Positions 4,177-22,601 are shown, counted from the stretch's first letter. The stretch: 32,000 nt of DNA from Candidatus Lokiarchaeum ossiferum (GCA_025839675.1 CP104013.1:2190001-2222000); one strand, 5' to 3'. Notes: a model not told the origin generated them from the letters alone. Numbers and translations are program-made.

Positions 4177-4647
4177 TTTTTTTACTGGTTTTCTAAATAA
4201 CAGGATTACAAGTAAAAGACCAGCAGAAGCTAAACCGAATACCAGCAGTTTCTCTTCAAAATAATTAAATAAAATATTTGTAAAGAGTAAGAAGGTAAAC
4301 AACAGTGCTAGCAAAGTCATGTACATAAGAATTACTTTAAAAATGCTCATATTAAGCATATTGACATGTTTAGGTTCCTTTCGCTTGCAAGTCGTACCAA
4401 TTTTTTCAAAACATTCTAATCTATCTTCATCACTTAATTTTACTGTACAAAATTTGCATTTTTTGGGTAAAATAGCATCAATAATATCAATGGAAGTATT
4501 ATTGTTCAAATGCATTATATCTTGTTGAATTGTATAGATCTCTTTTTCTTGCTCTAAAATGAGTTTTTCCGCACCTAACTGCTTCAACAGTTGTAACTTT
4601 TGCATACTCTCTTGCAATTCATGTAATTTTTCGTTAACATCAGACAT
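4159..4647 (-). CDS. Hypothetical membrane-anchored protein: N-terminal coiled coil, Cys cluster, two C-terminal TM helices
   Basis: 162-aa ORF with an ATG start. 'LHELQESMQKLQLLKQLGAEKLILEQEKE' has heptad character. The Cys pattern is 'CKFCTVKLSDEDRLECFEKIGTTCKRK'. Hydrophobic stretches are 'ILMYMTLLALLFTFLLFTNILF' and 'LLVFGLASAGLLLVILLF'. Its 3' end overlaps the convergent methyltransferase by 18 nt. Confidence 0.55.
   Translation of the reverse strand: MSDVNEKLHELQESMQKLQLLKQLGAEKLILEQEKEIYTIQQDIMHLNNNTSIDIIDAILPKKCKFCTVKLSDEDRLECFEKIGTTCKRKEPKHVNMLNMSIFKVILMYMTLLALLFTFLLFTNILFNYFEEKLLVFGLASAGLLLVILLFRKPVKKLYSQF
4177..4183 (+). terminator. Oligo-T tract directly after the methyltransferase stop codon (candidate archaeal terminator)
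   Basis: T7 run at 4177-4183 immediately 3' of TAA 4174-4176. Archaeal RNA polymerase terminates at oligo-T, but T runs are common in this AT-rich DNA. Confidence 0.3.
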
Positions 4648-6743: not shown

Positions 6744-7451
6744 TTAAACAATGTTTTGCTCTTCTCTAAGAGTAGAAATCCCAGCAAGTTGTTTTGAAAT
6801 TAAATCTTTTAACCATTTCTTAATTTGAAGAAAATTTTTAACTAAACCCATTGTACTTTCTTCAGGAAAGGGTAGATCTTGCCCTTGTTTTAAAGCGAAA
6901 TCCATCCATTTATGTAATGCGAGTTGAACCAAATCAGCACCTTTGGAATTTTGAAATATAGGAATAAGTGCAGCTCTTTCCCGACATTCACCAATTGCAA
7001 AATAAACTCTACGACTTAATTCTTTTGATAAAGCAAAATGCATTGCTTCATCTACTTTTCTTTCAACTAAAATACATTTGGAAATTTGATTTCGTAAATC
7101 GGAATTGATCGATTGCAGCTGTGATTTGTATTTTTGAAGGTTATCTGCGAGATTTTTGATATTTTCATCAATAGTTTCTTCATTACTCTCAAATAGAGTA
7201 AGAAAAATTTCGTCTTCTTTGTTTAAAATACTGATAAATTGCTTTGATTGCGCATTATATAATAAAGCAACATCTTGAATATGATCTTTTCCAGGATTAA
7301 TTTTGATGGAGAAACATCGAAAGGGAACATCACTTGCGGTAAAATATGCCAATTCAAATAATTCTAACCTTCCCAGTGGATCATAGGCAATCTTGACAGA
7401 TCTATTCCGCCAAATTTTGTTTATCTTTGCAAATTCTTGTAAAAGTCCCAT
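6744..7451 (-). CDS. Hypothetical protein (235 aa), co-oriented directly downstream of SepSecS
   Basis: Long ORF with an ATG start, 54 nt downstream of the spcS stop and 29 nt upstream of the next gene. Mostly helical-looking, and I recognise no motif in it. Confidence 0.6.
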   Translation of the reverse strand: MGLLQEFAKINKIWRNRSVKIAYDPLGRLELFELAYFTASDVPFRCFSIKINPGKDHIQDVALLYNAQSKQFISILNKEDEIFLTLFESNEETIDENIKNLADNLQKYKSQLQSINSDLRNQISKCILVERKVDEAMHFALSKELSRRVYFAIGECRERAALIPIFQNSKGADLVQLALHKWMDFALKQGQDLPFPEESTMGLVKNFLQIKKWLKDLISKQLAGISTLREEQNIV

Positions 7452-7505
7452 TTTTTTCCCTTAAATTGTGTTGATCTTTTGAAAATAAAAAAATTTCGTT
7501 TAGGT

Positions 7506-8897
7506 TCATTTATCTTGGATCTGTATGAAGGCTTTTTTTAACATTTGGATTGCAAGTAAAATATGTTTTTTCTCAACCCCTATTGCGGCATTCATGACTA
7601 CATAAGAGAAAGGTATTTCTGTTTTATTTGTACAAGACCCAAATTCAGACTTATTTAGATCAATGATCCTTGGACCGGTAACGCGTAAATTATATAGAAA
7701 TCCACCTAATTTTGAGATTTGATCTTGAGAAAATTTGGAAAGTGTTAATGCACACGATACTTTGTTTCCACAATCTATTAGCTTTTCCCCAAGATTTTCG
7801 GCAAGATTCTTCAGTTCAGATTGAAGTATGAAAAGATTTTCTTTTTGTTGTTTCATTTTGGATAAGTATCCGTTTTTTCCCATGCTTAGAAGAGACGTTA
7901 ATAAATGCATCGCAGGAGCAGCACTCGCTCTTCCAGCGTACGATTTGCTGATAGTTTGAATTAACTCTGAATTTGGGGATGCAATAATCGCCCCTCCGAC
8001 TGGAGTTAAGAAACATTTATCAGTACTCTGTATTATTGCATCCACCTTCCCTGCATCTATTGCCCCACGAATTATTTTCAAGATATCGCTAGATTGAACA
8101 CCATATGCGTTGTTAATTATATGAATGAGTTCATTTTTTTTGGCAAACTTTGAGATTTCTTTTATATTATCTGGAACCCTCGGGGCAAAAAATGCACAGT
8201 TTGTAATAATTGCACACACAGAATCGGAGTTTTTTTGAAAAATGGATTCAATTTCAGCCATATCAGTGTAAACACCTTCAGAAGCATAATAATTTTTTCC
8301 AAAATGACCCGGTATTGTGATTATCTCGGCTCCAATATATTTAATACCTTTGATGGGTGAATTGTGATCAATTTGAGTCATTAATACCATGTTTTTTTTT
8401 GTAGAGTTTATTTGAAAATGTGCTAAAGCACCTCGTAAAGCTAACCCAAGACTCATACCTGTACCCATGGGTACGACTAGAGAGCTTTTGATATTAGATA
8501 ACCCCAGAGACTTTAAAAGGGAAAAGGAAACTTTGTTTGACAAATTTTGCATTAAAGAGGCACCAGCAGCTTTTGGTTGGGGAGCCGCCAGCTCCCCACT
8601 TCTACCGACACCATGGCAAAAACCACCAATTTGATTAGACAGTAATTGAGTAGAAATTCTCCCTTCTCTTTCTCCAATCCGGATTGATTGTGGATCTTTA
8701 TCAGAATCTAAATGACTAAGAACATAAAGTAATTGAGTTATCTGATCATCATTCCAGCCCTCATCAGGGATAGATCTCTGTTCAAATAGTTGAATAATTG
8801 GCTTTGTATGAGCCCGTAATCCAATCGATGATCGATCCAACATATGAAGTGGAATACCGAGATTTTCAAGCTTCTTTGTAATAGATTTTTCCCACAT
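7506..8897 (-). CDS. spcS: O-phosphoseryl-tRNA(Sec) selenium transferase (SepSecS)
   Basis: Strong similarity, from memory, to human/archaeal SepSecS blocks: 'GEREGRI', 'HGVGRSGELAAPQPKAAGASL', 'VVPMGTGMSL', 'CAFFAPRVPD', 'INNAYGVQSS', the PLP-lysine block 'QSTDKCFLTPVGGAIIA', and 'YAGRASAAPAMHLLTSLLSMGKNGY'. The track starts at TTG 8900; the adjacent ATG at 8897 is the more likely start. Confidence 0.9.
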   Translation of the reverse strand: MWEKSITKKLENLGIPLHMLDRSSIGLRAHTKPIIQLFEQRSIPDEGWNDDQITQLLYVLSHLDSDKDPQSIRIGEREGRISTQLLSNQIGGFCHGVGRSGELAAPQPKAAGASLMQNLSNKVSFSLLKSLGLSNIKSSLVVPMGTGMSLGLALRGALAHFQINSTKKNMVLMTQIDHNSPIKGIKYIGAEIITIPGHFGKNYYASEGVYTDMAEIESIFQKNSDSVCAIITNCAFFAPRVPDNIKEISKFAKKNELIHIINNAYGVQSSDILKIIRGAIDAGKVDAIIQSTDKCFLTPVGGAIIASPNSELIQTISKSYAGRASAAPAMHLLTSLLSMGKNGYLSKMKQQKENLFILQSELKNLAENLGEKLIDCGNKVSCALTLSKFSQDQISKLGGFLYNLRVTGPRIIDLNKSEFGSCTNKTEIPFSYVVMNAAIGVEKKHILLAIQMLKKAFIQIQDK

Positions 8898-9045
8898 CAA
8901 TTCTCATTTAAAAATGTAGTGAACAAGCGTAAAAAGTCTTCCTCTCCAACTTTTATGAATTCATCTTTTCCTTAACATTGTTAAGAAAAAATAGGCCTCG
9001 TCTTTAAATTGGGTATTTTCTTTATATTATTAAAGAGGAAGGAAC

Positions 9046-10155
9046 TTGAGCGAACGAACTGGTACGAATAATAATAGATTTTGGAAAAAGCGTTTAAATA
9101 AACGCACTCGAAAAAAGGATCACGAAAAATTTCATGCTTCAATAGATAAAGACACATCCCTTACATTATATCGAAGAGAAGGAGGGCTTTATCTAATAAT
9201 CAAAAAAGAATTAGTAGAATATGATTTAACAATTAAACCTTCAGAAGCACCAGTCATTAACCAATATCTTAAAGTCCCGGACCCTTTTGAATCCATGTTG
9301 GCAGATATTAAGATATTTGAGAATGAAATCGAACCCTTAAATCTTGGAGTTCAGACCACCTTTGGAGAATCAAAAGATATTAACTTGATTTCAGTCAAAC
9401 TAGCTATAGGATCAGGAGAAGATGATTATGTCACCATAGACGAATCAGATCTATTTGCTATGGATGTGGAACCCACAATGACTGGGTTATTAGATTTCAT
9501 TCAAGCCAATGATAGCATAATCGGAATTTGTGATAGAATATTTGATCATGAAAAAGGAAATATTGTTCTTTTAGAAGCCAAATTAAGAGATCCGCACATT
9601 GGAATTTCATCCATAGAATTTAAAATTTTAAGCAGTCTCCATCAACGAGGGTTATATTTACAAAAAAATATGCGATATGCAGGATTACAACTTTATACGA
9701 TAATTAAAGCAGAAAGTCTAACTCCAGAATTACTCTCCTATTTGAAAGCTATAGATATAGACTGGGAAATAGTTTTCTTGCGCAGAGATTTAGCCATTGG
9801 TGATTGGTTGGAAGTAGAATGTGAAAAAAGTTCAATAAGTTTGAAAGGATATCTTGCTTCGAAATATGAATCCTTAGGTTTCTTTGATGTTAATAATATC
9901 ACCAGAATTGCTATCGTAAATCAACTCAGTTTTAAAATTGTGGTGAGAATGAGTGAACTCCTTAATCGCGTTAAATTTAACAAAGAAGAATTAACTGGAG
10001 GTTCTCCAGACCAAGATCCATTGAAAAAAGCAGAAATTATTGCAGCTGCAAATTTAGCTTGTGCCTATCATGGAATAAAAGTCGATATCAAAATTGATAA
10101 AGAAATTGATCCTCTCGAAATCCAACGATTTGAAGAAGAACTGATTCGACTTTAG
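9046..10155 (+). CDS. Hypothetical protein (369 aa)
   Basis: Long ORF divergent from spcS. The TTG start at 9046 is preceded by the purine-rich SD-like 'GAGGAAGG' (9035-9042). I recognise no motif. The start codon is uncertain, because a TATA-like 'TTTATATTA' sits at 9021-9029. Confidence 0.6.
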   Translation: MSERTGTNNNRFWKKRLNKRTRKKDHEKFHASIDKDTSLTLYRREGGLYLIIKKELVEYDLTIKPSEAPVINQYLKVPDPFESMLADIKIFENEIEPLNLGVQTTFGESKDINLISVKLAIGSGEDDYVTIDESDLFAMDVEPTMTGLLDFIQANDSIIGICDRIFDHEKGNIVLLEAKLRDPHIGISSIEFKILSSLHQRGLYLQKNMRYAGLQLYTIIKAESLTPELLSYLKAIDIDWEIVFLRRDLAIGDWLEVECEKSSISLKGYLASKYESLGFFDVNNITRIAIVNQLSFKIVVRMSELLNRVKFNKEELTGGSPDQDPLKKAEIIAAANLACAYHGIKVDIKIDKEIDPLEIQRFEEELIRL

Positions 10156-10163
10156 TTTTTTTT
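10156..10163 (+). terminator. Oligo-T tract after the 369-aa gene (candidate terminator)
   Basis: T8 run at 10156-10163 immediately after TAG 10153-10155. It overlaps the stop codon of the convergent recJ-like gene. Confidence 0.35.
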
Positions 10164-11673
10164 ACCCAATTTGTTCTTTCACAAATTCATTTACTTTCTC
10201 AATAAAATCTTTCAAATGGGCCGTTTTTATCTTTGCACCCGCTGCCGGAGGGTGCCCACCAGCAGGATTTTGAATTTTTAGTTGTTGACAGGCTTTACGC
10301 ATTACAATACCAAGATCTAAGCCTTTATCCAACAATTCTCGATTTGCTCTAGAAGACACTTTTAAAAAATGATTGTCAGAATCGGCAAACGCGATCAAAG
10401 GTTTATCATGTTGTAAATCTGAGTGAATTAGAATAGAACAAATAGTTCCTATAATTCGTTCATCTATAGTATTATCATAAACAGTTCGAATATATTCATA
10501 TTCACGAATTTGTTTCTTTGCAGATTGAATGGCCCGAGATAATTCTTTTTTATAGTCTTTTTTTTCACTCATGGCATCTGTTAGTGCCTCAGCATTCCCT
10601 AAAAGAGCCGCAATCCCAACACCTTGTTTCCCACGCCTCCCACATGCATTCAATAAACTTGACATTTCTCTAGCATCTGAAACAGAGATTTTTGGGTCAA
10701 AATCTGTTAAAATATAGAAAGTGGTCACTAATTTTTTGATATCATCGGTAGAAATACCTTTTTCTACTAAAGCATATTGAATCAATGCGTTTGTAAGTGT
10801 CTTTTTTTCCATCTCACTTAGATCTATCAAAGTTCGCGAATGGTTCAATTCGTCAGTCGCTTGAATATTTATCCGATTCAAAAATTGGACCACTCCATCA
10901 TAACTACCAGATAAACCTTCAATCTCTAAAGGGAGGGAATAAATTAACGATTGAATTAAAGGACGAGTCCTTGAAATGGCAATATTTTTCTCCAAAATTA
11001 TTTTTCTATCATTCATTGCTTCTTGCAAAATTTTCTGATTAATCCCTTTAAATTCACTTTTGTCGTTGTTATTTTGCATGTCACCAATAGCACCTACAAT
11101 AGCGAGGGCAGCCAAATCTTGATTTTTTTCATTCATTATTTTAGAAAAGAGATAACATATTCCAGCCCCAGAAATTTCATCCTCACCCCGAATATCGTAA
11201 AAATAAGGATTAATATGATTAATTTCAGGAGGATTATCAATTTTCTCTGGCTTGTGATGATCCAATATTAAAAAATCAGTTGTTTTTAATTTTTCTTTCA
11301 AAATCTCATATTGACCGGATCCAAAATCGGTTAAGACAATAAAACGATTATATTTTGATATCTCTTCAGCAATTGTTGCAATATACTGAGATTCTAATTG
11401 ATTTAAAATTGTAATTTGAAATCCAATATTCTCACGAGTGAACATTTTTGCCATAATTGCCGCAGCACTTAACCCATCAGCATCGAGATGACTATAAATG
11501 TGAATGTTTTTTTGGAAACGAGAAGAATCAAAATGTTGGAGACTAACCTTTTTTTGAAGATTAGGAGCGATTTCATCTTGATTTTTTGATGCTCCTTTCT
11601 CAATCTGAGCAAATAGAAAATCTTTAGCCTTTTGCATAGCATTTAGTAGTTCATTTAATGGTATCATACTCAC
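10162..11673 (-). CDS. RecJ/Cdc45-family DHH phosphoesterase (archaeal RecJ-like/GAN-type nuclease)
   Basis: 503-aa ORF. DHH motifs 'HLDADGLSAAAI' (I), 'VLTDFGSG' (II), 'ILDHHKPE' (III), 'GAIGDM' (IV) and the DHHA1 motif 'GGHPPAAGAKI'. The track start at 11673 is GTG; an ATG at 11667 is an alternative. Confidence 0.8.
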   Translation of the reverse strand: MSMIPLNELLNAMQKAKDFLFAQIEKGASKNQDEIAPNLQKKVSLQHFDSSRFQKNIHIYSHLDADGLSAAAIMAKMFTRENIGFQITILNQLESQYIATIAEEISKYNRFIVLTDFGSGQYEILKEKLKTTDFLILDHHKPEKIDNPPEINHINPYFYDIRGEDEISGAGICYLFSKIMNEKNQDLAALAIVGAIGDMQNNNDKSEFKGINQKILQEAMNDRKIILEKNIAISRTRPLIQSLIYSLPLEIEGLSGSYDGVVQFLNRINIQATDELNHSRTLIDLSEMEKKTLTNALIQYALVEKGISTDDIKKLVTTFYILTDFDPKISVSDAREMSSLLNACGRRGKQGVGIAALLGNAEALTDAMSEKKDYKKELSRAIQSAKKQIREYEYIRTVYDNTIDERIIGTICSILIHSDLQHDKPLIAFADSDNHFLKVSSRANRELLDKGLDLGIVMRKACQQLKIQNPAGGHPPAAGAKIKTAHLKDFIEKVNEFVKEQIG

Positions 11674-11759
11674 CTAAAGGAGACAATCTTACTTGTTTTC
11701 CTTTCTTTATTTGTCTTTATATCAAAGCTGTTTAACTAAATCAATTAAAAATATAGAGC

Positions 11760-11766
11760 AAAAAAA
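11760..11766 (-). terminator. Oligo-T tract after the 159/174-aa gene (candidate terminator)
   Basis: A7 on the plus strand, so T7 on the coding (minus) strand, 10-16 nt downstream of stop 11778-11776. Confidence 0.3.
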
Positions 11767-11775
11767 GAAATAAAC

Positions 11776-12255
11776 TTATTTTTGCTCTTCCCTATGATAT
11801 ATTACAATTTTTTCCCATTCTTCGGGATCAGAAAAAATGGAACTCACTCGATCAAAAATAAATTCAGCAATTTTATCTTTTCCATGAGTTTCAACACTTT
11901 TTTTCATTCTTAATCCACTTGATATCTCAATACCCCATACAACTTGATTCAAAATTAATAGATTAAGCTGTTTTCGAGAATTTTTTATGGCTCTAATTAA
12001 ATACCAAGGGGATTTTCCACTTTGATTAATAGTTATATCATTAGAATTGGGACCTTTTACAAAAATATTCTTGCCTGATAAAATCTGACATTTTTTAGGA
12101 TTCTCTTCTTTAAAGGTCTGAACTTTGCGAAGGAAATTTTTATCATGGTCTATAAGTCGTATATGTTTCCCACAGATTTGTTCACAGCTCAAAATTCGGA
12201 TTTCTTTCTTACGATGAAGTTCTTCTGACTCATAAATAACTTCCAAAAATGACAT
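11776..12255 (-). CDS. Hypothetical protein (159 aa from ATG 12255; 174 aa if GTG 12300 is used)
   Basis: ORF lying between coaBC and the recJ-like gene on the same strand. The ATG at 12255 is preceded by SD-like 'GGGGA' about 7 nt upstream. No recognised motif. Confidence 0.55.
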   Translation of the reverse strand: MSFLEVIYESEELHRKKEIRILSCEQICGKHIRLIDHDKNFLRKVQTFKEENPKKCQILSGKNIFVKGPNSNDITINQSGKSPWYLIRAIKNSRKQLNLLILNQVVWGIEISSGLRMKKSVETHGKDKIAEFIFDRVSSIFSDPEEWEKIVIYHREEQK

Positions 12256-12344
12256 TGAAATTCCCCTTATATCACAATTTGTTGTCAGATCATTTAACAC
12301 TTTGTGCTTCTTGAAAAATTAAAAAAAACCAATAACAAAAAAAA

Positions 12345-13616
12345 TCAAGCATTTAGAACAAGAAAATCAATTATTTTTTTGGAAATCGATCGCTTACTTG
12401 CAAGTTCTAGCTTAGTGGTGGCTTTTTGTGAATCAATAATAAACACTTCATTTGTGTCTGATCCAAATCCTTTTCCAGAAATGGAACTACCAGCATGATT
12501 TGCGACGATTAAATTAGCTTTAGATGTTGTTAGACGGTCATAAGCCTTTTCAATAATTTCTGAATCGGATAAATTTGATTCTGCTTTGAACGCAATAATG
12601 TAAAGATTTGGAGATTTTTCTCGGGCTAAAGAGATCAGTTTTGGTGTGGATATTAGATGCAGATCTAAAAATTGTTGATTGCTTGAGATCTTTTTATCTT
12701 GTCGCTTCTCTGGAGTAAAATCCGCTAATGCTGCGGTTGAGATTAAATAATCATATTTCTTGAGATCCAACTCTTTTAACATCGCATCTACAAAATTTTG
12801 AGTGGATTCTACATGGACGACTTTTGCACCAAGGGGGTCTTTGATGATACTCTTCCCTTTTAATAAAGTCACTTCACCACCTCGTGATAAAATTTCTTCG
12901 GATAATGCAATACCCATCTTTCCCGTTGAAGGATTTGAAAGAAAGCGAACATCATCAACCCACTCTATGCTAGGTCCTGCAGTGATCAAGAACTTTTTTT
13001 TGATTAAATCTTTGTTTGGAGAGAAAAAATTAATGACAAAATTAACAACTTCATCTACTGCAGCAATTTTAGCTTTGTTTTCTTCTAATCTAGGTCCAAG
13101 CACTTGTACACCTAAATTTTTTAGTTTTTGAATATTTTCTTGAACAATAGGATTTCGAAACATGGAATCGTGCATAGCTGGGACAATGGCCATTGGGGTT
13201 TTACTACCTAACGCAACCATTGAGATGGCGGTGACAGGATTATCACTTATCCCATGGGAGATCTTTCCAATAGAATTACCTGTTGCAGGACAAATCAGAA
13301 TCATGTCTGCGATACCTTTCGTATTTTCACGTTCTCCAGCAGTAGCGATGTGTTCAATTTTTCCAGTAATTTCAGTAATAACTGGATTACCCGTCGCCCA
13401 TTCTATTAAAGTTGGCTGAATTAGTTTAATTGCCTCTTCTGACATCACAGTAATAACTTCAGCACCATGTCGCATTAATTCCCGCGCTATTGAAGGAGCA
13501 TTTAAAATAGCCACACTTCCAGTTAAACACATACAAATGGTTTTACCTTGTAAATTTTCGCTTTTAATCCCAATTATATCTTTAGTAGGATGAATATGGC
13601 GAATCTGATTTTCCAT
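12345..13616 (-). CDS. coaBC: Bifunctional phosphopantothenoylcysteine decarboxylase / phosphopantothenate-cysteine ligase (CoaBC/Dfp)
   Basis: The N-terminal flavoprotein half has 'ICMCLTGSVAILNAPSIARELMRHGAEV' and 'PAMHDSMFRNPIVQENIQKLKNLGVQVLGP'. The C-terminal ligase half has 'ITAGPSIEWVDDVRFLSNPSTGKMGIALSEE' and 'AALADF'. The track ORF begins at TTG 13640; I place the start at the first ATG, 13616. Confidence 0.9.
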   Translation of the reverse strand: MENQIRHIHPTKDIIGIKSENLQGKTICMCLTGSVAILNAPSIARELMRHGAEVITVMSEEAIKLIQPTLIEWATGNPVITEITGKIEHIATAGERENTKGIADMILICPATGNSIGKISHGISDNPVTAISMVALGSKTPMAIVPAMHDSMFRNPIVQENIQKLKNLGVQVLGPRLEENKAKIAAVDEVVNFVINFFSPNKDLIKKKFLITAGPSIEWVDDVRFLSNPSTGKMGIALSEEILSRGGEVTLLKGKSIIKDPLGAKVVHVESTQNFVDAMLKELDLKKYDYLISTAALADFTPEKRQDKKISSNQQFLDLHLISTPKLISLAREKSPNLYIIAFKAESNLSDSEIIEKAYDRLTTSKANLIVANHAGSSISGKGFGSDTNEVFIIDSQKATTKLELASKRSISKKIIDFLVLNA

Positions 13617-13865
13617 GAGACTAGTTAAAGCACAATTCAAAAAAATATTTCTTATGCCTCAGTATATATCTTTGTGATTACAAGGAATGATAGAATTTTA
13701 GAATTTCCAAAAAGTTTAAATATGTCAAAAAAAGATAACAATCTTTAATACGGAGCGTTTTATTTATTGAACTTGAAAATTGAATTGGAGTTTTGATTCC
13801 TAAGCGAATATATTCATAATCCGACAAAAATAATTCCAACAGCCCACTAAGGCAATTGATCTACA

Positions 13866-16800
13866 ATGGCAAAGAAAGAAACTAAATCTCAAGAAAGCGG
13901 AACAATTAAGCAAGGTAGCGTAGCAGAATTTTTTAGAAAACGAACTCAATTAGTCGGATTTGATTTTGGTCTAAATAAGTTTACTCAGTATTGTATTGAG
14001 TTTGTAGATAACTCTCTCGACGCTTTGGAGAATTTCCATTGGAAAGAAAGTAAGAAACATCAAGATTATGCATTCAAATTGAAAGATGACTTGATTTTAG
14101 AGAATTTTAGCTATTTTATTCCCGTCTTTGAAGAAGATATTCAAGAAATGGAAAGTAAGCTTGAATCCGAAATGGTTGATGATGAGGGTAATAAATTATC
14201 AGAAGATGGAGAATTAATTATCGAGCTTGAAGATGAAGAGGAAAACGATGAATCCCTTGTAATTGATGAAGAAGAAAAACTTCAAACTGAGGAAACTGCC
14301 GATTCAGATGAAGATGATGAAGAAGCGAAAAATATTCGAAAGTTGCAAAAAAAAGCCGATGAACTTGAATCCGAAGTTCAAAACATCATGTATGGTATTG
14401 ATGGATTTCTATATCCTATCAAAGCGATGGTAGAAAGAGAACCATTTGTAATATTTCAATTAACTGAAAGAGAAGCACAAGACGTATATGCAGATGCAAG
14501 TTCAGATTCAAAAGAAGTTTTTGAATATACATTGGATGTATTTGATAATGGAACAGGAATGAGTCCTGGAGATTTGGAAAAATTTGGAAGATATCTTGCA
14601 TCTAGCAAAAGTCAAAAACTTAAACAAACCCGAGGATCCCAAGGGTTTGGATCTCCAAGTGCATTTAGTGATGCACAAAATACCACCGGACAACCTGTAA
14701 CAGTCGTTTCTAAAGATATAAATCACATCTATGCAACTTGTTCCCAATTTTACACAACTTCGAAAAATTCAAAGGAATATATTGTTCCACCTACAGAAGT
14801 AACTTCCATTTTTGAACATGGGACATTTATTTCGCTCAATTTTCTTAATGTTAAATATCGAAAAGGATATATTGATTCCTACATCCAACAAACCGCTCTT
14901 ACCAATCCACACATTACAATAATCTTTCTTGATCCAAATGGTGAAGAAGAAATTTATCCTCGGAGGGTTAAAAACTTCCCCCGAGAACCAACCTACGCTT
15001 TACCACACCCATCATCAGTAAATATTGGCGATTTCCAAGATCAATTACGATCTTCTGAGAATTTAACAGTTAGTGCTTTTTTACAAGATAATTATGTAAG
15101 AATGAGTTCAACCATAGCGAAAAAAATTGTGAAGGAATCTGAAGAAGAACTTGAGCAAATTCTTTCGCTTTTAAATCTCGAATCTGGATATCTTACTTGG
15201 AGAAAAAATCCAGGGCCAATTTATTTTGCGCATAATGAACAACGAATTCATGGTAGATCAAAAAAACCTCGAGATACTTTAGTTATATATGAAGTTAAAG
15301 ATGAAGAGGACTTAGCTCAATATTGGGGAATCCTTAAAGTTTACAACAAAAAATTGGATTCCATTAATAAAAAGAGTAACAAGATCCGTAAACTCCAAAA
15401 ATCAATTATGCGTGAAGTAGATAAAAAACAAATTAAAACTTATAAAAAGGAAATCAGCGGATTAGAAAAAGAAATTGCATCTATTGAAAAAGAAAATCAA
15501 AATCTTAAAAAAACTCTTAGTAAAGCTGTAAAAACATTTAAATTTCTTCCTCAAAATGAAGTGAAGGATTCTAAAATCACCGATAAACTGGAAGATGATG
15601 TAAAAGAGGTTATGACTTCAAAAGCCCACCCATATTCTTTAACCCAAAAACAGACCGAATCATTATATAAGGCATTCAAAGCCCAGAAATACATGGCACC
15701 TCCATCAGATCCTGCAGTTCCTATTGGCGGTAATATTCTGGAAACAACGATGCTTAAAGAATTTAATTTAAACCCCGCCCATCGGACGGATTTGTTCATA
15801 CAATATGAAGCCAAACTCGAAAAACTTACATCAAAAGAATCCGAAATATTTCCCCAAAAAATTTTATCACGATTTATAGTTCCGCCCTACTTGGATCCCG
15901 AATTTTCTTCAGAACAAATGTATAAGGCCAATGAGGAATTAAATCATAAATCATATGCCGATATGTTCCTAAAATATGACATGGTTCATACTCAAGATGA
16001 TGATTTTATAATGGGCTATACACGTTCTCCAACAAGCGGTAAGGGATTAGCTTTCGTAGTAGAAGCCGTTATAGCAATCAGCCCCAAAATACCAAGTTCT
16101 AAACAAGCTCAGCAAGTCCTTATGCGTTATGTGAATAGAACACCAAAGATGCGAGATAATTCAGATTGTGCAATTTGGAAAGGTGTTCAATCAGTTAATT
16201 GGAAAAATTATAAATTGGATACTTTTGACAACGGCATTCCGAAAGGAAATATTCGCATGTTAGTTAATGTTTCTGGACCTTATGTCCACCTTATGTTCAA
16301 ATCTCAATCAAAGAATGCTTTAGCAGAAGATGAAGTATTATTAAAAGAAATTAAATATTGTTTGGAAGCAATTGGTCGGAAGATTCGACAATATCAAAAT
16401 AAAAGAACCAATCGAGAAAATAGTCGTAAACGCTCCAAAGTTATTGAAAAATTTGTGCCTATCTTTGTAAGTTCATTACTTGAAGTTGCTACAACAATAG
16501 ACGCCTATAAAGATTTGAAGGCTGCCAAAATTGAACAACGTATCCTAGATCGACTTGAAGGAAAAATAAAAAAAACACCTGAAGAAATTGAAGAAGAAAA
16601 TTCAAGAAAAGAACAAGAAGATAAAGATCGTATTATTTTGGAAAAGATTCGAAAGCAACAACAGGCTAGAAAGAGAGAAGTGGATAAAGAAATATCTTCA
16701 CAAAAGAAAGATGAAAACTCCGATGATGAAGTTGAGGTAAGTGATGAGAGTGAAAGTCCAAGAAAGGAAGTTAAAATAACACTTTCTGAGAAAATTGCGA

Positions 16801-17282
16801 TGAAACCAAGATCCGCTGATGGCCCAAAACCTGTTCGCACTATCGATGATATCCTATCTAAAGCAAAAACACATTCAAAGTCAAAAGTTTCTTCCAAAAC
16901 AAAATCTTCCACAAGAAAATCAACCAAAAAAGTTCTTAAAGTAAAAGGAACAAAAGCGAAAAAACTTGAGAGTAAATCACCAACATCAGACAAAACAATT
17001 CCGAAAGAACCTATTAAAGTTAAAAAATCACCTCCTGCACCGTCCGCGAAAAAATTGGTCAAACCACAATCAAAAATAAATATTATTTCAGCTGATGGAA
17101 TTCTTAAAAAATTACCTGAAGATGAGTGGTTGAATATCAAAGATCTCATTAGAATATTGGAAATTAAAGATCTAAAAGATGCTCGCTTCTTGCAGCTCAA
17201 ACTTAAACAATTAACCCGTGAAAAACGGCTCCTTATTTCCATTAAAGGAGGTAAAACCTTTTGGAAGTTAAATAAAAAATAA
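13866..17282 (+). CDS. top6B: DNA topoisomerase VI subunit B, strongly expanded (1138 aa)
   Basis: GHKL/Bergerat motifs: N-box 'EFVDNSLDA' (aa 45-53), G1 box 'VFDNGTGM' (aa 225-232) and 'TRGSQGFGSPSAF'. Transducer-domain blocks: 'GLAFVVEAVIA', 'LMRYVNRTPKM' and 'VNVSGPYVHLMFKSQSKNALAEDE'. It sits directly upstream of top6A. Confidence 0.9.
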   Translation: MAKKETKSQESGTIKQGSVAEFFRKRTQLVGFDFGLNKFTQYCIEFVDNSLDALENFHWKESKKHQDYAFKLKDDLILENFSYFIPVFEEDIQEMESKLESEMVDDEGNKLSEDGELIIELEDEEENDESLVIDEEEKLQTEETADSDEDDEEAKNIRKLQKKADELESEVQNIMYGIDGFLYPIKAMVEREPFVIFQLTEREAQDVYADASSDSKEVFEYTLDVFDNGTGMSPGDLEKFGRYLASSKSQKLKQTRGSQGFGSPSAFSDAQNTTGQPVTVVSKDINHIYATCSQFYTTSKNSKEYIVPPTEVTSIFEHGTFISLNFLNVKYRKGYIDSYIQQTALTNPHITIIFLDPNGEEEIYPRRVKNFPREPTYALPHPSSVNIGDFQDQLRSSENLTVSAFLQDNYVRMSSTIAKKIVKESEEELEQILSLLNLESGYLTWRKNPGPIYFAHNEQRIHGRSKKPRDTLVIYEVKDEEDLAQYWGILKVYNKKLDSINKKSNKIRKLQKSIMREVDKKQIKTYKKEISGLEKEIASIEKENQNLKKTLSKAVKTFKFLPQNEVKDSKITDKLEDDVKEVMTSKAHPYSLTQKQTESLYKAFKAQKYMAPPSDPAVPIGGNILETTMLKEFNLNPAHRTDLFIQYEAKLEKLTSKESEIFPQKILSRFIVPPYLDPEFSSEQMYKANEELNHKSYADMFLKYDMVHTQDDDFIMGYTRSPTSGKGLAFVVEAVIAISPKIPSSKQAQQVLMRYVNRTPKMRDNSDCAIWKGVQSVNWKNYKLDTFDNGIPKGNIRMLVNVSGPYVHLMFKSQSKNALAEDEVLLKEIKYCLEAIGRKIRQYQNKRTNRENSRKRSKVIEKFVPIFVSSLLEVATTIDAYKDLKAAKIEQRILDRLEGKIKKTPEEIEEENSRKEQEDKDRIILEKIRKQQQARKREVDKEISSQKKDENSDDEVEVSDESESPRKEVKITLSEKIAMKPRSADGPKPVRTIDDILSKAKTHSKSKVSSKTKSSTRKSTKKVLKVKGTKAKKLESKSPTSDKTIPKEPIKVKKSPPAPSAKKLVKPQSKINIISADGILKKLPEDEWLNIKDLIRILEIKDLKDARFLQLKLKQLTREKRLLISIKGGKTFWKLNKK

Positions 17283-17295
17283 GGAAGAGAAAACC

Positions 17296-18570
17296 ATGGC
17301 GAAAAAGAGTACGCGGAAAACTACCCGAAAAACGACCAGAAGATCAAGCACCAGTAAGAACTCACAAAAAGAAGTCACGGCCAGCAGAAACCTACGTTCG
17401 GGCTTAACAATGAACCAATTAGTTGCAGTCCGGAACTATTTAACTGAGAGACAGAAAGAAGCCGATCGTGGCGATTTTGTTGCCCCAGAAGGAACGGTTC
17501 AGATCGATGAACTAACCATGGATAAAACTTTGGAGCGGATTGATACAGAAATTCGCAAATTGGTATTTCAAATTGAAAATTCTGGCAATCCCAGCTTTTC
17601 AATTCCTAAACGTTCTGCTTCCAATATTATTTATGATGAAGAACAAGATATCTTATTACTTGGGAATCAACAAACTAATAAAGCACTTCTAACCTTGACA
17701 TCCGCTCAAGATACTACTCGAGTTATGGAAGTCATTAAAATAATTCATGAATTGCTCACTAAACGAAAGCATATGACGAAAAGGGAAGTATTTTACGGAA
17801 ATGTAAATCTCTTCAAAGATCAAAAATTCAGTGATGCTTGCATAGAAGATGTCTCGGCACTATTGCATACAACCCGAAATTCAACCGGAATTGTTGCTAA
17901 AGCCCGAGGATCTGCAGTTGGGCGATTAAGATTAAAGGATGGAAATGAAATCATTGATCTGGATCGTCAAGGCTCGGGTTCGTGGAGTATAACACCCATG
18001 ATTGACAAGGTCGATGTTATCGAATCGGACGCCGAATTTATTCTTGTTCTGGAAAAAGACGCCGCCATGATGCGGATTATTGAAGAAAAATGGTGGAAAA
18101 AATTCCCCTGTATCACCCTCACTGCTGAAGGAGTCGGTAACGTAGCCACCCGTATGTTTCTCAAGAAAATCAACTCGGTTCTTAAACTTCCAACATTCTG
18201 TCTCGTCGATGCAGATCCATATGGGCACTACATCTATTCAGTTTATATCCGAGGAAGCAAACGATTGAGTTACGAATCTCCGTTCTTAGCGACTCCAGAC
18301 ATGCACCTTTTAGGGGTTTTATCTCGCGATCTCGACGAATACGGGGTTGATTACAGCTGTCGAATCCCTATGGATAAAGTCGATATAAAACGCCTAGACG
18401 ATATGTTAAGCGAGCCTTATGTCCGTGCGAATCGTCGCTGGCGGGAAGATTTAGAACTCATGAAGAAGATGAAGATGAAAGCAGAAATACAAGCACTCTC
18501 ATCACATGGGATCGAATATTTAACTGATACCTATTTACCTAACAAATTATATTCAGGAGATTGGATTTAA
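17296..18570 (+). CDS. top6A: DNA topoisomerase VI subunit A (Spo11 homologue)
   Basis: CAP-domain catalytic Tyr in 'MTKREVFYGN' (Y167, codon 17794-17796). Toprim Glu in 'FILVLEKDAAM' and the DxD in 'CLVDADPYGHYI'. It starts 13 nt after top6B. Confidence 0.92.
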   Translation: MAKKSTRKTTRKTTRRSSTSKNSQKEVTASRNLRSGLTMNQLVAVRNYLTERQKEADRGDFVAPEGTVQIDELTMDKTLERIDTEIRKLVFQIENSGNPSFSIPKRSASNIIYDEEQDILLLGNQQTNKALLTLTSAQDTTRVMEVIKIIHELLTKRKHMTKREVFYGNVNLFKDQKFSDACIEDVSALLHTTRNSTGIVAKARGSAVGRLRLKDGNEIIDLDRQGSGSWSITPMIDKVDVIESDAEFILVLEKDAAMMRIIEEKWWKKFPCITLTAEGVGNVATRMFLKKINSVLKLPTFCLVDADPYGHYIYSVYIRGSKRLSYESPFLATPDMHLLGVLSRDLDEYGVDYSCRIPMDKVDIKRLDDMLSEPYVRANRRWREDLELMKKMKMKAEIQALSSHGIEYLTDTYLPNKLYSGDWI

Positions 18571-18571
18571 A

Positions 18572-19147
18572 ATGAAGGTATTTCGATTAGACGATGGGCG
18601 AATTTTACAATTAGCAGATAAAAAAAAGATGGATCATTGGGATGCTGAAATGCCATTGCTCTTCATTGGTGATACTCGAGAAAAACAACTGCCCGAATAT
18701 AAAAAAATCTATCCAAAAGCAGTAGTTCAGGAAATTGAGGATTATTTAGAAGATATTTTAGAATCTGTTGCAATTCCAAAATTGATTAATGCTTTAACGA
18801 GTAAAGTTCTTGAAACACGTTTAAAAGTTGCGGAAAATATTGCTAAATTAAGTGAATCAAATCCAGATCAACTCAAAATTGCACTTCCTCATGTGGAAAA
18901 AGCGTTGCAAGATCCAAATAAGCAGATACAGAAACTCATGGAAACAACTTTAAAAAATTATAAGCGGGCACAAAAGCGAAAGGAAACTGCCAAAAAACGA
19001 AAAATTTTAACAAAATTGCGGAAACAAATGGATATCGTTGATAATGATTTTGCTGATGGAAAGATCAATGATGAGCAATATATGATTGAACAAAAAAAAT
19101 ACTTGGTATTAAAACGCGAAATTGAATTAGCGGAACAAGTGGATTGA
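18572..19147 (+). CDS. Hypothetical HEAT-repeat-like protein with a basic coiled coil and a SHOCT-like C-terminal motif
   Basis: The ATG lies 1 nt after the top6A stop, and an SD-like 'GGAGA' sits inside the top6A 3' end. 'AIPKLINALTSKVLETRLKVAENIAKL' and 'ALPHVEKALQDPNKQIQKLMETTL' look like HEAT repeats. 'KRAQKRKETAKKRKILTKLRKQ' is a basic helix. 'FADGKINDEQYMIEQKKYL' resembles the SHOCT motif. Confidence 0.65.
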   Translation: MKVFRLDDGRILQLADKKKMDHWDAEMPLLFIGDTREKQLPEYKKIYPKAVVQEIEDYLEDILESVAIPKLINALTSKVLETRLKVAENIAKLSESNPDQLKIALPHVEKALQDPNKQIQKLMETTLKNYKRAQKRKETAKKRKILTKLRKQMDIVDNDFADGKINDEQYMIEQKKYLVLKREIELAEQVD

Positions 19148-19154
19148 AAGTAAG

Positions 19155-19751
19155 ATGGCTGTTGTAAAAAAATATGAACATCTGGAAGAATTCATTCATT
19201 GTGTAGACATTGGCATCGATACAAATACCGATTTAGTTCGGTGGACCCGTCCTCAAACAAATATTTTTAGATTGGAGATGTTACATGCCAGAGAAATGGC
19301 AAAACCAGGAATTTATCTTCATATTGAGAAATCGAATCGAAGAACTGTATTTATCCGAAAAGAAAAAATTGTTTTTATTATTGTAGCAGACGATTCGGTG
19401 CAATATCAATTGTTGGAAGCAATTTTAGAAGTGACTATGAAAGCCTTTTTTGATTCCTATGAGGATCTTCTAAGTGGGTTTTTAACTGGGATGACAAACA
19501 TGTTTGGTGGATTTCAAAGCTTGATCACTCCGTTATTTATTAAAGCATTGAAAGAAAATGTAAGATGGATTTCAGCTCACTGCAACGTTTGCAATGCTAA
19601 TCACTCCGTTTGCGTTAAAAAATCATTTATTAATAATGCGCCACGGTACCCAGCATCAATCGTATTCAAACATGAAGGGCATGGTCTTTTAATATATATT
19701 GATGGAGATTTCAAGATAAGGGGTCAAGAAGTAGTTGAAATTACAGGTTAA
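19155..19751 (+). CDS. Hypothetical protein: longin/roadblock-like N-terminal alpha/beta domain plus a C-terminal Cys/His cluster
   Basis: Starts 7 nt after the previous gene. 'KIVFIIVADDSVQYQLLEAILEVTMKAFFDSYEDLL' resembles the beta5-alpha2 segment of longin-type domains such as adaptor sigma subunits (from memory). The C-terminus has 'HCNVCNANHSVC...KHEGHGLLIYIDGDFKIRG'. Confidence 0.6.
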   Translation: MAVVKKYEHLEEFIHCVDIGIDTNTDLVRWTRPQTNIFRLEMLHAREMAKPGIYLHIEKSNRRTVFIRKEKIVFIIVADDSVQYQLLEAILEVTMKAFFDSYEDLLSGFLTGMTNMFGGFQSLITPLFIKALKENVRWISAHCNVCNANHSVCVKKSFINNAPRYPASIVFKHEGHGLLIYIDGDFKIRGQEVVEITG

Positions 19752-19756
19752 AGGTT

Positions 19757-19775
19757 AAAAAAAATTTTAAAAAAA
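19757..19775 (-). terminator. Oligo-T tracts after leuS, in the 33-nt gap between convergent genes
   Basis: A8 (19757-19764) and A7 (19769-19775) on the plus strand read as T7 and T8 runs on the leuS strand, directly after its stop (19787-19785). Confidence 0.35.
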
Positions 19776-19784
19776 CCCGAAATT

Positions 19785-22601
19785 TTATTTAATGCTAAGT
19801 GCAGGTTTTCCAGGAAGGGCTTGGTCTTTCTTTTTATTATCTGAGTTTGTTTCTTTTACAATAATTATTTTGGTACCAAGATCATTTTCGAGTAATGCTA
19901 AATTTTCAGTAAAGAATGCATATTCTTCCTCTTGATTAGGGAAAGGCACTGAAAATTTTCCTGGATTTTTAGAAATTCGCCCCAAAAACCCTTTGATTTG
20001 CTTTCCATAACGCTTCAAATCTGGTTTTGACATGGCATTTTTCATTAAATCCCCAAAATTTTTCCCATCCTTAATCATGGAAAGAGTTTCTTCAGTAAAT
20101 TGATTTTTCCAAGAATCAGCAATAATGATTTGAATTTCCTTTGGAACTTCAATTTTTATCAATTTCTGAATATTTTTGACATCATCTAATACATTTTCAT
20201 AACATTGCCAACGTAATTCGATGGATTCATTTATATACTGAGAATCGAATGCAGGCCATTTACAAAGAGAAACATAGGGATCATGTCCCTTGAGATGCCA
20301 TAATTCTTCACACATATGGGGGACGATAGGGGCAAGCATCAATATTAATGTTTCCTGACATTGCCCAAAAAGTTGTTTATTAGGCACCATTTCACAATAT
20401 TTTCGAAGCACATCAGCGAAACCAATGATTTCATTTAAAGCATCTCGAATTAACATTGTTTGATAAAGTTCCGTCACATTTCTAATCATACGATGCAAGC
20501 GATATTGGATATAACCATCGTAAACATCAACTGAATCCCTGGTTGAAATTGGGATATCATTAACTAGATCCCAGATTTTTAACATAATACGATTGTCGGC
20601 ACTACAACCTGCATCTGACCAATCCATTTCCTTTACAGGATTTGCGGCATGCATAATGAAGAAACGAGCAGTATCTGCACCAAATTCCTCGACAATTCTT
20701 TGGGGAGATATCGTATTTCCCAAGCTTTTGGACATTTTGGCAGATTTTAGAATATATTTTGACCCACATGTATTACAAGTTTCGGTTTCCATATTATATT
20801 CTCCCGTCCAATTTCCTTCTTTGTTATAAGATTTGGGCAAGAATTTGTTACAAGATTCGCAATAAGGATGAGGAAGATTAACCATCCCTTGGGTCAAGAG
20901 TGCTTTAAAAGGCTCATTAAAACTATGCAAACCAAAATCGCGAGTTATTTTAGTGAAAAATCGTGCGTAGAGTAAATGTAAGATTGCATGTTCGATCCCT
21001 CCAATATATTGATCAACCGGCCCCCAATATTCCACATCTTCCTTATTGAATGGAACATCACCTAATTTAGGACTAGTGTATTTTAGGAAATACCAAGAAG
21101 AATCCACGAAAGTATCCATCGTATCCGATTCTCTTCGAGCAGCTTTTCCACATTTAGGACATGAAACATTCATGAAAGATTCACTATGTTCCAAAGGATT
21201 ACCAGTCTTACCAAAAACAGCATCTTGAGGCAATTCAACAGGTAATTGATCAATTGGAACGGGAACTACCCCACATTCATCACAAAATATCATTGGTATT
21301 GGTGTACCCCAATAACGCTGGCGAGATACAAGCCAATCTCGAATTTTATAATTTGTTGTTTTTCCGCCTTTACCAATTTCTTTTAACTTCTCTGCAATAC
21401 GATCAATAGCTACTCGATTCTCAACGCCAGAAAAATCTTCAGATTTATCTAATACACCATCTTCAATAAATGCCCGAGACATTTTCTCCCCTTCAAGAAC
21501 AAATCCATCAAAGGGTTGAATAACGACTTTAATGGGAATGCCATATTTTTTAGCAAATTCAAAATCTCGTTGATCATGAGCTGGAACGGCCATAACTGCC
21601 CCGGCACCATAACCATATATAACAAAATTCCCTGCATAAATGGGTATTTTATCTCCATTCAAAGGATTAATTGCATATTTACCCAAGAAAACTCCTTTCT
21701 TTTCAGTTTCATCAGCCATGCGTTTATATCGATCTTGCTCCATCACTTCTTCATAAAATTCTAGATATTCTGCTTCATATTCAGTATCCTTAACAAATTC
21801 TTTGCACCAAGGATGTTCTGCGGCCATGGTCATAAAAGTGACACCAAAAATGGTATCAACTCGGGTAGTAAAAATACTTAGTGTTTTGTCAGTTCCTTCA
21901 ACAGCAAAATCTGCTACAGTTCCCTCACTTCGTCCAATCCAATTTCGCTGCATAGTTTTTACTTTTTCAGGCCATTCAAGATCATCCAACCCTTGAAGCA
22001 ATTCATCAGCATATTCACGGATTTTGTAAAACCATTGGGATAAAAATTTAGGATTCACATCAGAACTACACCGCCAGCATTTTCCATTTATGACTTGTTC
22101 ATTGGCTAACACTGAAGTACAGCCAGGGCACCAATTCACGAGTGATTCTTTCCGATAAGCCAACCCTTTTTCATACATTTTAAGAAAGATCCATTGATTC
22201 CAACGATAATAATCTTTTTCAATGGATGACACTTCTCTTCGCCAATCGTAGCTATAACCGATTCGTTTTTGATTTTCTTTAATACTTGCAATATTTTTAC
22301 GAGTTGTTATTTCTGGATGAGTTCCTTGCTTAATTGCAGCAATTTCTGCAGGTAATCCAAAAGAATCATAACCCATAGGATAAAGAACATTAAACCCATT
22401 CATCCGTTTAAAACGAGCGAGAGTATCACCAATCGTATAATTGCGGAGATGTCCCATGTGCATTTTACCGCTTGGATATGGATACATTTCGAGGCAATAG
22501 AATTTTTTTTTGGAAGGATCCTTTTCCACTTCAAAGATTTTGGCTTCTTCCCATTTTTTCTGCCATCCAAGTTCAATTTCTTGGGGCTTGTATTCAACCA
22601 T
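19785..22601 (-). CDS. leuS: Leucyl-tRNA synthetase (bacterial-type core)
   Basis: 938 aa. HIGH region '[20 protein letters not shown]' and KMSKS '[10 protein letters not shown]'. Blocks '[24 protein letters not shown]', '[14 protein letters not shown]', '[17 protein letters not shown]' and '[18 protein letters not shown]' closely match E. coli-type LeuRS as I recall it. Confidence 0.95.

Follow-up and report, generated by a model that had tools for sequence, protein, structure and literature searches.

The eukaryotic topoisomerase VI (Topo VI) and Spo11 machineries, for which archaeal Topo VI is the model, need extra proteins. Might an archaeal Topo VI operon encode additional components of the enzyme as well? 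A locus of Candidatus Lokiarchaeum ossiferum B-35, which we analyzed within a stretch of 32,000 nucleotides (nt; hereafter, the window), raises this question. It comprises four open reading frames (ORFs) on the plus strand: top6B (13866-17282; 1138 amino acids (aa); NEF87_001819), top6A (17296-18570; 424 aa; NEF87_001820), and two genes that we call g3 (18572-19147; 191 aa; NEF87_001821) and g4 (19155-19751; 198 aa; NEF87_001822). A first-pass annotation of this DNA had described four co-directional genes separated by 13, 1, and 7 nt, which the ORF listing reproduces exactly, and had proposed that they encode a multi-subunit holoenzyme with two extra proteins. The assignment of the top6 genes is based on ORF calls, profile matches, and motifs; that of g3 on a structural model, profiles, and linkage; and that of g4 on a model, profiles, and distribution. 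By exact-sequence look-up, all four proteins are identical to the annotated entries UYP45534-45537 (NEF87_001819-001822), which the existing annotation names 'DNA topoisomerase 6 subunit B' (NEF87_001819), 'subunit A' (001820), and 'hypothetical protein' (001821 and 001822). Both g3 and g4 are real, conserved genes rather than chance ORFs.

Our analysis suggests, with a probability of about 0.5, that the Lokiarchaeial Topo VI operon has top6B-top6A-g3 as its conserved unit, in which g3 would be a clade-specific Topo VI-associated factor, and that g4 would be a later insertion. The proposal of two extra subunits is thereby reduced to one: g3 is a plausible candidate for a third Topo VI component owing to its strict linkage, and g4, an occupant of a variable slot that is collinear with the neighboring LeuRS gene, is not a conserved partner. 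Gene linkage is the whole of the case for g3. The association had also been thought undescribed, and our literature search agrees, as it returned no prior description of g3, of these locus tags, or of a HEAT-repeat partner of Topo VI.

Linkage of g3 to top6A

To follow the locus across genomes we assembled 80 Asgard loci found with a Top6A query, 10 metagenomic loci found with a g3 query, and 18 loci from exact-protein look-ups of homologues of g3, g4, and g5 (a further family, described below). At the time of the spacing analysis g3 was detected in 37 loci, 36 of which had upstream sequence; one more (L106) was added later. In 36/36 of these, 17 of which had been retrieved with g3 itself as the query, g3 starts between -10 and +57 nt from the top6A stop, mostly between -4 and +2 nt, and the stop and start codons of the two genes mostly abut or overlap. 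The g3-bearing loci include Promethearchaeum syntrophicum MK-D1, Harpocratesius, a Sigynarchaeum-like clade, and the more divergent L088, L091, L092, L094, and L095.

The linkage of g3 to top6A holds in divergent lineages, also where the flanking genes DFP and/or LeuRS have been lost. In the Sigynarchaeum locus L018, g3 is 39% and Top6A 52% identical to the window proteins and the two genes are still linked; L016-18 keep the linkage with g5 and without LeuRS, and L018 also without DFP. It is likewise kept in L088, with an Arf-like GTPase gene downstream and DFP inverted, in L091 and L092, with a YdjM-like gene downstream, and in L095, where an unrelated 224-aa gene follows. Insertions are found repeatedly after g3 and never between top6B, top6A, and g3. 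Conservation of the four-gene order in relatives had been proposed as a check: g3 keeps its place after top6A in every locus in which it could be measured, and g4 does not, as detailed below.

The family is narrowly distributed. A six-frame hidden Markov model search (--max) detected no g3 in 68/68 top6 loci of Thor, Hel, Heimdall, Baldr, and Hermod lineages, and no weak remnants of g3, g4, or g5 in the Thor, Hel, and Heimdall loci. Among 1.84 billion representative proteins, a profile search returned only ~15 full-length g3 clusters, the rest being generic HEAT-repeat proteins that match aa 45-130, and all full-length g3 relatives with examined context directly follow top6A. On a neighbor-joining tree of Top6A, 26 of the 27 g3-bearing tips form one clade, with L088 on a deep long branch.

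The g3 protein was modeled with AlphaFold2 (AF2) from a 40-sequence alignment at a pLDDT of 87.2, and the model shows an N-terminal β-hairpin followed by helices, being all-helical over aa 27-189. The layout comprises an N-terminal β-hairpin module (aa 1-45), ~2.5 HEAT-like repeats (aa ~46-116), a basic long helix of 45 residues (aa 117-161, 15 Lys/Arg), and a terminal helix. The N-terminal module is the most family-specific part and holds the most invariant positions (F4, Q13, W23, P28, L29, I32). The window protein itself scores 20.5 bits against Pfam HEAT, below the 23.5 cut-off, and HEAT is matched in 17/40 family members (best 1.3e-6), while the family profile retrieves hundreds of proteins with multiple HEAT repeats and, among structures, those of alphaRep and armadillo proteins (8e-11). 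Foldseek gave weak matches to designed ARM/HEAT proteins only (E ~0.02, template modeling (TM) score 0.33) and no functional lead. Thus, of the 'HEAT/SHOCT-like' label given at first, the HEAT half is borne out; the SHOCT half was rejected, since no SHOCT match was found for the window protein (E<=1) or within the top 25 families for the 40 members, and what is left is a motif-level resemblance. Compared with HEAT, alphaRep, and armadillo proteins, g3 shares the HEAT-type repeats by sequence and fold over aa ~46-130 but sets only ~2.5 of them between a family-specific β-hairpin module and the long basic helix. Pairwise conservation over the same genome pairs is 54-64% for g3, 58-60% for Top6B, 53-60% for DFP, and 44-51% for g4.

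Co-transcription of all four genes is likely, because the spacers of 13, 1, and 7 nt are too short for a promoter and contain no T5+ run; indeed, no such run occurs on the plus strand over 15083-19263, which covers all of top6A, g3, and the three junctions. A TATA-box-like octamer, TTTAAATA, lies 144 nt upstream of the top6B ATG (13715-13722, plus strand) and is a candidate operon promoter. It is the sole plus-strand TTTAWATA within 13600-19800, with none inside the operon; across the window this motif is not enriched (10 found vs 13.2 expected), so that the TATA evidence is weak. At the other end, the 33 nt that separate the stops of g4 and the convergent LeuRS gene (19752-19784) are A/T-rich, contain short T runs, and are a likely termination zone for both transcripts.

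The variable slot after g3 and the background synteny

The gene after g3 has a different history. The AF2 model of g4 (pLDDT 86.7, pTM 0.86) contains a longin domain at aa ~14-134 (19194-19556, plus strand), assigned from the model, Foldseek, and weak Pfam matches: Foldseek retrieved the longin domains of VAMP7, SYBL1, and Sec22b (E 2.6e-5 to 1e-3, target TM 0.60-0.74) as well as the LAMTOR roadblock, and a sub-threshold Pfam Longin match is found in 11/12 family members. A five-stranded C-terminal β-domain follows at aa 136-194 (19560-19736, plus strand; AF2 model and conservation), in which conservation is complete at C143, C146, and H173 and near-complete at H176 (>=90% of sequences). Both Cys/His pairs sit at β-hairpins in the model, and no Pfam or PDB match was obtained for this domain, which is probably a metal-binding ribbon. 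The initial 'longin-like Cys/His' description of g4 therefore agrees with the predicted fold. The Cys/His domain also exists alone, since a stand-alone 107-aa protein in L088 (12739-13062, minus strand), ~4 kb beyond g3, matches only this part of g4 (E 1e-4 to 1e-6).

We found g4 only in a Lokiarchaeum/Harpocratesius subclade, namely in the window, L001-4, L006-11, L013, L096, L097, L102, L105, and probably L106. It is absent from MK-D1, L014, L016-18 (Sigynarchaeum-like), and L088-L095, all of which have the giant Top6B and g3. The linkage of g4 is therefore not conserved wherever the giant Top6B occurs, and all g4 loci are collinear with LeuRS; because LeuRS adjoins wherever g4 occurs, plain collinearity explains its position. 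Within the subclade g4 is packed closely, 7 nt from g3 in the window and 1 nt in L001, and it overlaps g5 by 11 nt in L003. One Promethearchaeota metagenome-assembled genome (L009) has two tandem g4 copies downstream of g3 (7049-7648 and 7693-8277).

Elsewhere the slot between g3 and LeuRS is filled differently by lineage: by g4; by g5, sometimes followed by g4; by a membrane protein (MK-D1), an Arf-like GTPase (L088), a YdjM-like protein (L091, L092), or the unrelated 224-aa gene of L095; or by nothing (L014). In several Lokiarchaeial lineages the gene after g3 belongs to the g5 family, whose members have 281-295 aa and no Pfam match; in L003, L013, and L106 it lies ahead of g4. The g5 members lie at 9154-10011 in L003, 4118-5005 in L012, 6679-7431 in L013, 3559-4404 in L016, 11708-12553 in L018, 3178-3423 in L094, 8001-8882 in L106, and 8001-8867 in L107, and the search attributed no homologue to L. 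ossiferum. Slot genes can separate from top6, because the L107 homologue (38% identical) adjoins LeuRS and GlmS, and no top6 gene lies within 8 kb of it. We had considered g4 as a truncated form of g5 and abandoned this, as hhalign found no relationship between the two. We conclude that g4 would be a later insertion into this variable slot in the Lokiarchaeum/Harpocratesius subclade, and the odds are against a Topo VI role for it.

What g4 does instead may be suggested by its fold. It could be a longin protein of the Asgard trafficking or GTPase-regulator type that serves as a platform for a small GTPase or some other partner, landed in the slot, and has no function in DNA topology; we give this less than even odds. 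The structural resemblance to VAMP7, Sec22b, and LAMTOR and the recurrent weak Longin matches speak for it, as does the Arf-like small GTPase that occupies the slot in the deep-branching L088 (8793-9479). In the literature, longin and roadblock proteins figure as platforms for GTPases, and Loki genomes have many of them, with ~41 longin domains reported (PMC10933270), so that a longin neighbor is not very surprising. Against this reading, g4 has no GTPase gene as a neighbor in the window, its Cys/His β-domain has no Pfam or PDB counterpart, and the family was seen only at this operon position, with no free-standing full-length g4 found. g4 has the α-β-α fold of longin (VAMP7, Sec22b, Ykt6) and roadblock (LAMTOR, MglB) proteins over aa ~14-134, but differs from them in that it has no SNARE motif or GTPase fusion, carries a ~60-aa Cys/His β-domain, and is encoded in a topoisomerase operon.

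The main rival to our interpretation of the locus extends the same doubt to g3. Both g3 and g4 might be functionally unrelated to Topo VI, riding in the 3' part of a housekeeping transcript, and their position might reflect a stable DFP-top6BA-LeuRS neighborhood. The two flanking genes are a CoaBC/DFP gene divergent to top6B (12345-13640, minus strand, 431 aa) and a LeuRS gene convergent with g4 (19785-22601, minus strand, 938 aa), both identified by Pfam. As a control, we counted them in the non-redundant g3-bearing loci with enough flanking sequence: DFP lies upstream of top6B in 11/12 loci and LeuRS within <=3.5 kb downstream in 12/15, compared with 29/29 for top6A directly before g3. Since DFP and LeuRS, neither of them known to be linked to Topo VI, are almost as conserved, adjacency alone is weak evidence; gene order is very stable across the clade, the adjacency of g3 is only modestly above this background, and g3 could be frozen in place. 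Several further points weigh against a Topo VI role of g3: the block SepSecS-GAN-DFP-top6BA-LeuRS-GlmS is common to L. ossiferum, MK-D1, and Harpocratesius; archaeal operons often combine unrelated functions; HEAT repeats are generic interaction modules with no functional specificity, and no functional domain of g3 or g4 points to DNA topology; and g3 as well as both the expansions and the C-terminal domain of Top6B belong to a single clade, such that their co-occurrence is not phylogenetically independent.

The g3 gene is nevertheless unlike the flanks, as it runs in the same direction as top6A and abuts or overlaps that gene, while DFP is transcribed divergently and LeuRS convergently. Moreover, it stays by top6A exactly where DFP or LeuRS were lost or inverted (L012, L016-18, L088, L091, L100), new genes entered repeatedly after it and never before it, no examined family member lies at any other position, and its conservation equals that of Top6B. 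Taken together, we consider mere hitchhiking of g3 rather unlikely and prefer the reading of top6B-top6A-g3 as a conserved unit.

Architecture of the enlarged Top6B and of Top6A

The two catalytic subunits carry every motif expected of Topo VI. Top6B matches NCBIfam NF003218 at 2e-92, above the equivalog cut-off, and Pfam Topo-VIb_trans at 1e-27 (aa 701-855). It has the GHKL/Bergerat ATP-binding motifs (N-box EFVDNSLDA, aa 45-53; G1 DNGTGM, aa 227-232; G2 GSQGFG, aa 257-262) and the transducer motifs (WKxY as WKNY, aa 779-782; switch-Lys motif SQSKNA, aa 813-818). Top6A matches Pfam TP6A_N (1e-17) and TOP6A-Spo11_Toprim (5.6e-54) and contains the catalytic tyrosine motif of the 5Y-CAP domain, KREVFY (Y167), together with the Toprim residues E253 and DADPYG (aa 305-310). 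Because every catalytic motif is present, Top6B and Top6A most likely form an active A2B2 type IIB topoisomerase, as predicted from sequence. The first 35 residues of Top6A (17296-17400), MAKKSTRKTTRKTTRRSSTSKNSQKE, make up a Lys/Arg/Thr/Ser-rich basic tail, probably disordered, that precedes the region alignable with other Asgard Top6A.

At 1138 aa, Top6B had been called giant relative to the ~530-620 aa of characterized proteins, and the solved chains confirm the difference (530 aa for 2zbk_B, 621 aa for 2q2e_B). The giant form is conserved across Lokiarchaeia: throughout the g3-bearing members Top6B has 1123-1297 aa, and the positions of the insertions are also conserved. In other Asgard loci of our collection Top6B measures 600-760 aa (Thor, Baldr), 961 aa (a Heimdall-labelled bin), and 1238 aa (Hel).

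Alignment to the Methanosarcina mazei chain 2q2e_B defined four core blocks (aa 15-56, 222-424, 587-632, and 712-874), and the additions around them were further profiled, in 20-aa blocks, by the identity of nine Lokiarchaeial Top6B sequences with the window protein. The four core blocks mostly reach 0.6-0.97. Insertion 1 (aa 57-221; 14034-14528, plus strand) lies in the GHKL domain between the N-box and the G1-box and is acidic in composition (53 D+E, isoelectric point (pI) 4.05). Insertion 2 (aa 425-586; 15138-15623, plus strand) lies within the H2TH region, whose two halves flank it in the alignment to 2q2e_B, and consists of two parts, first a small segment that looks rich in β-structure and then a basic, coiled-coil-like stretch; a Pfam scan gave coiled-coil noise only. 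It can be aligned in part in the Hel and Heimdall-labelled loci and not in Thor or Baldr. Insertion 3 (aa 633-711; 15762-15998, plus strand), between H2TH and transducer, is largely unaligned in non-Loki Top6B. Insertions 2 and 3 show identities of 0.16-0.47, and insertion 2 alone 0.33-0.47.

Toward the C-terminus, a poorly conserved Lys/Glu-rich tail (aa 901-1064; 16566-17057, plus strand; composition and conservation profile), with identities of 0.13-0.28, leads to a conserved, basic C-terminal domain of 74 aa (aa 1065-1138; 17058-17279, plus strand; pI 10.2; conservation profile), with identities of 0.46-0.76. An antisense ORF opposite the tail (16505-17242, minus strand, 245 aa) was dismissed as a low-complexity Ser/Phe/Leu-rich mirror of the tail and is almost certainly no gene. 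The C-terminal domain shows a pattern of three helices and then a β-hairpin ending in G-K-x-Y/F-W-K, by which it looks like a helix-turn-helix (HTH) or winged-helix fold; a Pfam scan of it gave nothing usable, and a PDB profile search reached the DesR HTH at E=0.1 only. This domain was detected in 32 g3-bearing loci and in 0 of the g3-negative loci.

Could the enlargement be low-complexity bloat devoid of functional meaning? The Lys/Glu-rich, weakly conserved tail and the partly acidic low-complexity sequence of insertion 1 are what such neutral growth would leave behind. However, insertion positions and total length are kept across the clade, sequence conservation extends to insertion 2 and the C-terminal domain, and the Pfam models of the neighboring LeuRS, GlmS, DFP, and GAN proteins are matched essentially end to end. 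As these housekeeping proteins show no comparable expansion, the doubling appears specific to Top6B, and we regard neutral bloat as improbable.

Flanking genes and comparison with other Topo VI systems

Further out from DFP and LeuRS, the window encodes a GAN/RecJ-Cdc45-like protein (10162-11673, minus strand, 503 aa), SepSecS (7506-8900, minus strand), a gene of the selenocysteine pathway, and GlmS (616 aa). Two genes with no Pfam match lie among them, one of 369 aa (9046-10155, plus strand) and one of 174 aa (11776-12300, minus strand). The block from SepSecS to CoaBC/DFP (7506-13640) is collinear in MK-D1 and Harpocratesius (L005, L006). Near the start of the window, a 684-aa N6-adenine methyltransferase of Eco57I/MmeI/TaqI_C type, resembling a type IIG/IIL restriction-modification enzyme (2122-4176, plus strand), is followed by three minus-strand ORFs with no Pfam match (4159-4647, 4810-6714, and 6744-7451). 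At the other side, a 769-aa ORF with no Pfam match (25249-27558, plus strand) has a 771-aa counterpart in the same position after GlmS in the relative L001.

Characterized archaeal Topo VI is described as a plain A2B2 heterotetramer (PMC11894792). The enzymes of Saccharolobus shibatae (2zbk) and M. mazei (2q2e) share with the Loki proteins, which match both solved enzymes significantly, the top6B-top6A operon, the GHKL boxes, H2TH, transducer WKxY, switch Lys, 5Y-CAP Tyr, and Toprim DxD. The Loki system differs in a Top6B that is ~2x longer, with three insertions, a Lys-rich tail, and a clade-specific C-terminal domain, and in the third, strictly linked gene after top6A. With Arabidopsis Topo VI and its partners RHL1 and BIN4 it shares a concept only: a core with accessory proteins that are small, basic, and perhaps able to bind DNA. 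RHL1 and BIN4 were reported absent from archaea (PMC11302465); g3 is a HEAT-repeat and g4 a longin protein, and scans of both against Pfam and NCBIfam, which did not include a direct comparison with RHL1 or BIN4 sequences, gave HEAT and Longin matches only and detected no homology. Extra helices are common to Asgard and eukaryotic TopoVIA/B, and Brinkmeier et al. (2022) proposed Asgard-specific helices of TopoVIA and TopoVIB as possible partner interfaces (PMC9665070).

Other Asgard loci (Thor, Hel, Heimdall-labelled, Baldr, Hermod) share the top6B-top6A core, with Top6A identities of 48-58%, but have no g3, g4, or Loki-type Top6B C-terminal domain. Thor Top6A is enlarged instead (~700-950 aa) by an N-terminal extension with 2-4 tandem helix-hairpin-helix (HhH)-like repeats (LPGVGxK...GYxSVxKIA...KKVxGI...AxKIV) and Lys/Pro-rich linkers, as in L023 (8516-11083), L056 (8918-11077), L077 (8846-11077), and L081 (8780-11101); Top6B of these loci has only 644-760 aa. 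With these repeats, Thor Topo VI has gained putative DNA-binding modules in a different, lineage-specific way. The top6A stop of Hel-type loci is overlapped by the gene for a C2H2 Zn-finger and coiled-coil protein (L037, 6862-7515, 217 aa, by 10 nt; L079, 1810-2655, 281 aa, by 4 nt), and the C-terminus of the 1238-aa Hel Top6B is winged-helix-like but different from that of Loki. Pfam scans of this Zn-finger protein and of g5 gave nothing usable. A small gene coupled to top6A seems to recur across Asgard lineages with unrelated proteins.

A four-component holoenzyme, in which the operon hard-wires both g3 and g4 as stoichiometric subunits of the enlarged Topo VI, is highly improbable: the tight packing of g4, its confinement to this operon position, and the recurrence of small, putatively Zn-binding proteins by top6A would fit it, but g4 is missing from many lineages with giant Top6B and g3, its slot elsewhere holds unrelated genes of which g5 can leave top6, its loci are all collinear with LeuRS, it evolves faster than g3 and Top6A, and a longin neighbor is not very surprising in Loki. 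The locus is not a demonstrated multi-subunit holoenzyme, and g4 is not to be counted in on present evidence.

For the preferred unit of top6B, top6A, and g3, we propose the following mechanism. The Top6B of this clade has grown by an acidic insertion within the ATPase domain, a basic, coiled-coil-like insertion within H2TH, a third insertion, the Lys-rich linker, and a basic HTH-like C-terminal domain, additions that might provide contacts to DNA or to partners. g3, which would be translated directly after top6A, may have arisen together with these Loki-type expansions; its N-terminal module and HEAT-like repeats might dock onto the enzyme, and its basic long helix might contact DNA or the acidic Top6B insertion. 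It would be analogous to, and not homologous with, the eukaryotic Topo VI accessory proteins. A more specific version is a three-component Topo VI, in which g3 is a dedicated HEAT-repeat subunit that binds A2B2, possibly via the helices specific to Asgard archaea and eukaryotes or via the clade-specific insertions of Top6B, and tunes how the enzyme binds DNA or passes strands, and which g4 might join in Lokiarchaeum and Harpocratesius; this version we hold only tentatively.

The comparison shows that Asgard lineages decorated Topo VI independently: Loki with g3 and a giant Top6B, Thor with HhH-like repeats on Top6A, and Hel with a Zn-finger gene. If g3 does not bind the enzyme, the locus warns against reading function from synteny where gene order is very stable. 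If it does, recombinant Loki Topo VI probably needs g3 for proper study. The presence of g3 and the doubled Top6B in cultured Asgard archaea (L. ossiferum and P. syntrophicum MK-D1) offers a candidate archaeal accessory subunit that is concrete and can be tested. Should the three-component enzyme be real, g3 would be the first accessory subunit of Topo VI in archaea and would provide, in close relatives of the eukaryotes, an independent precedent for the partner-dependent eukaryotic Topo VI and Spo11 complexes.

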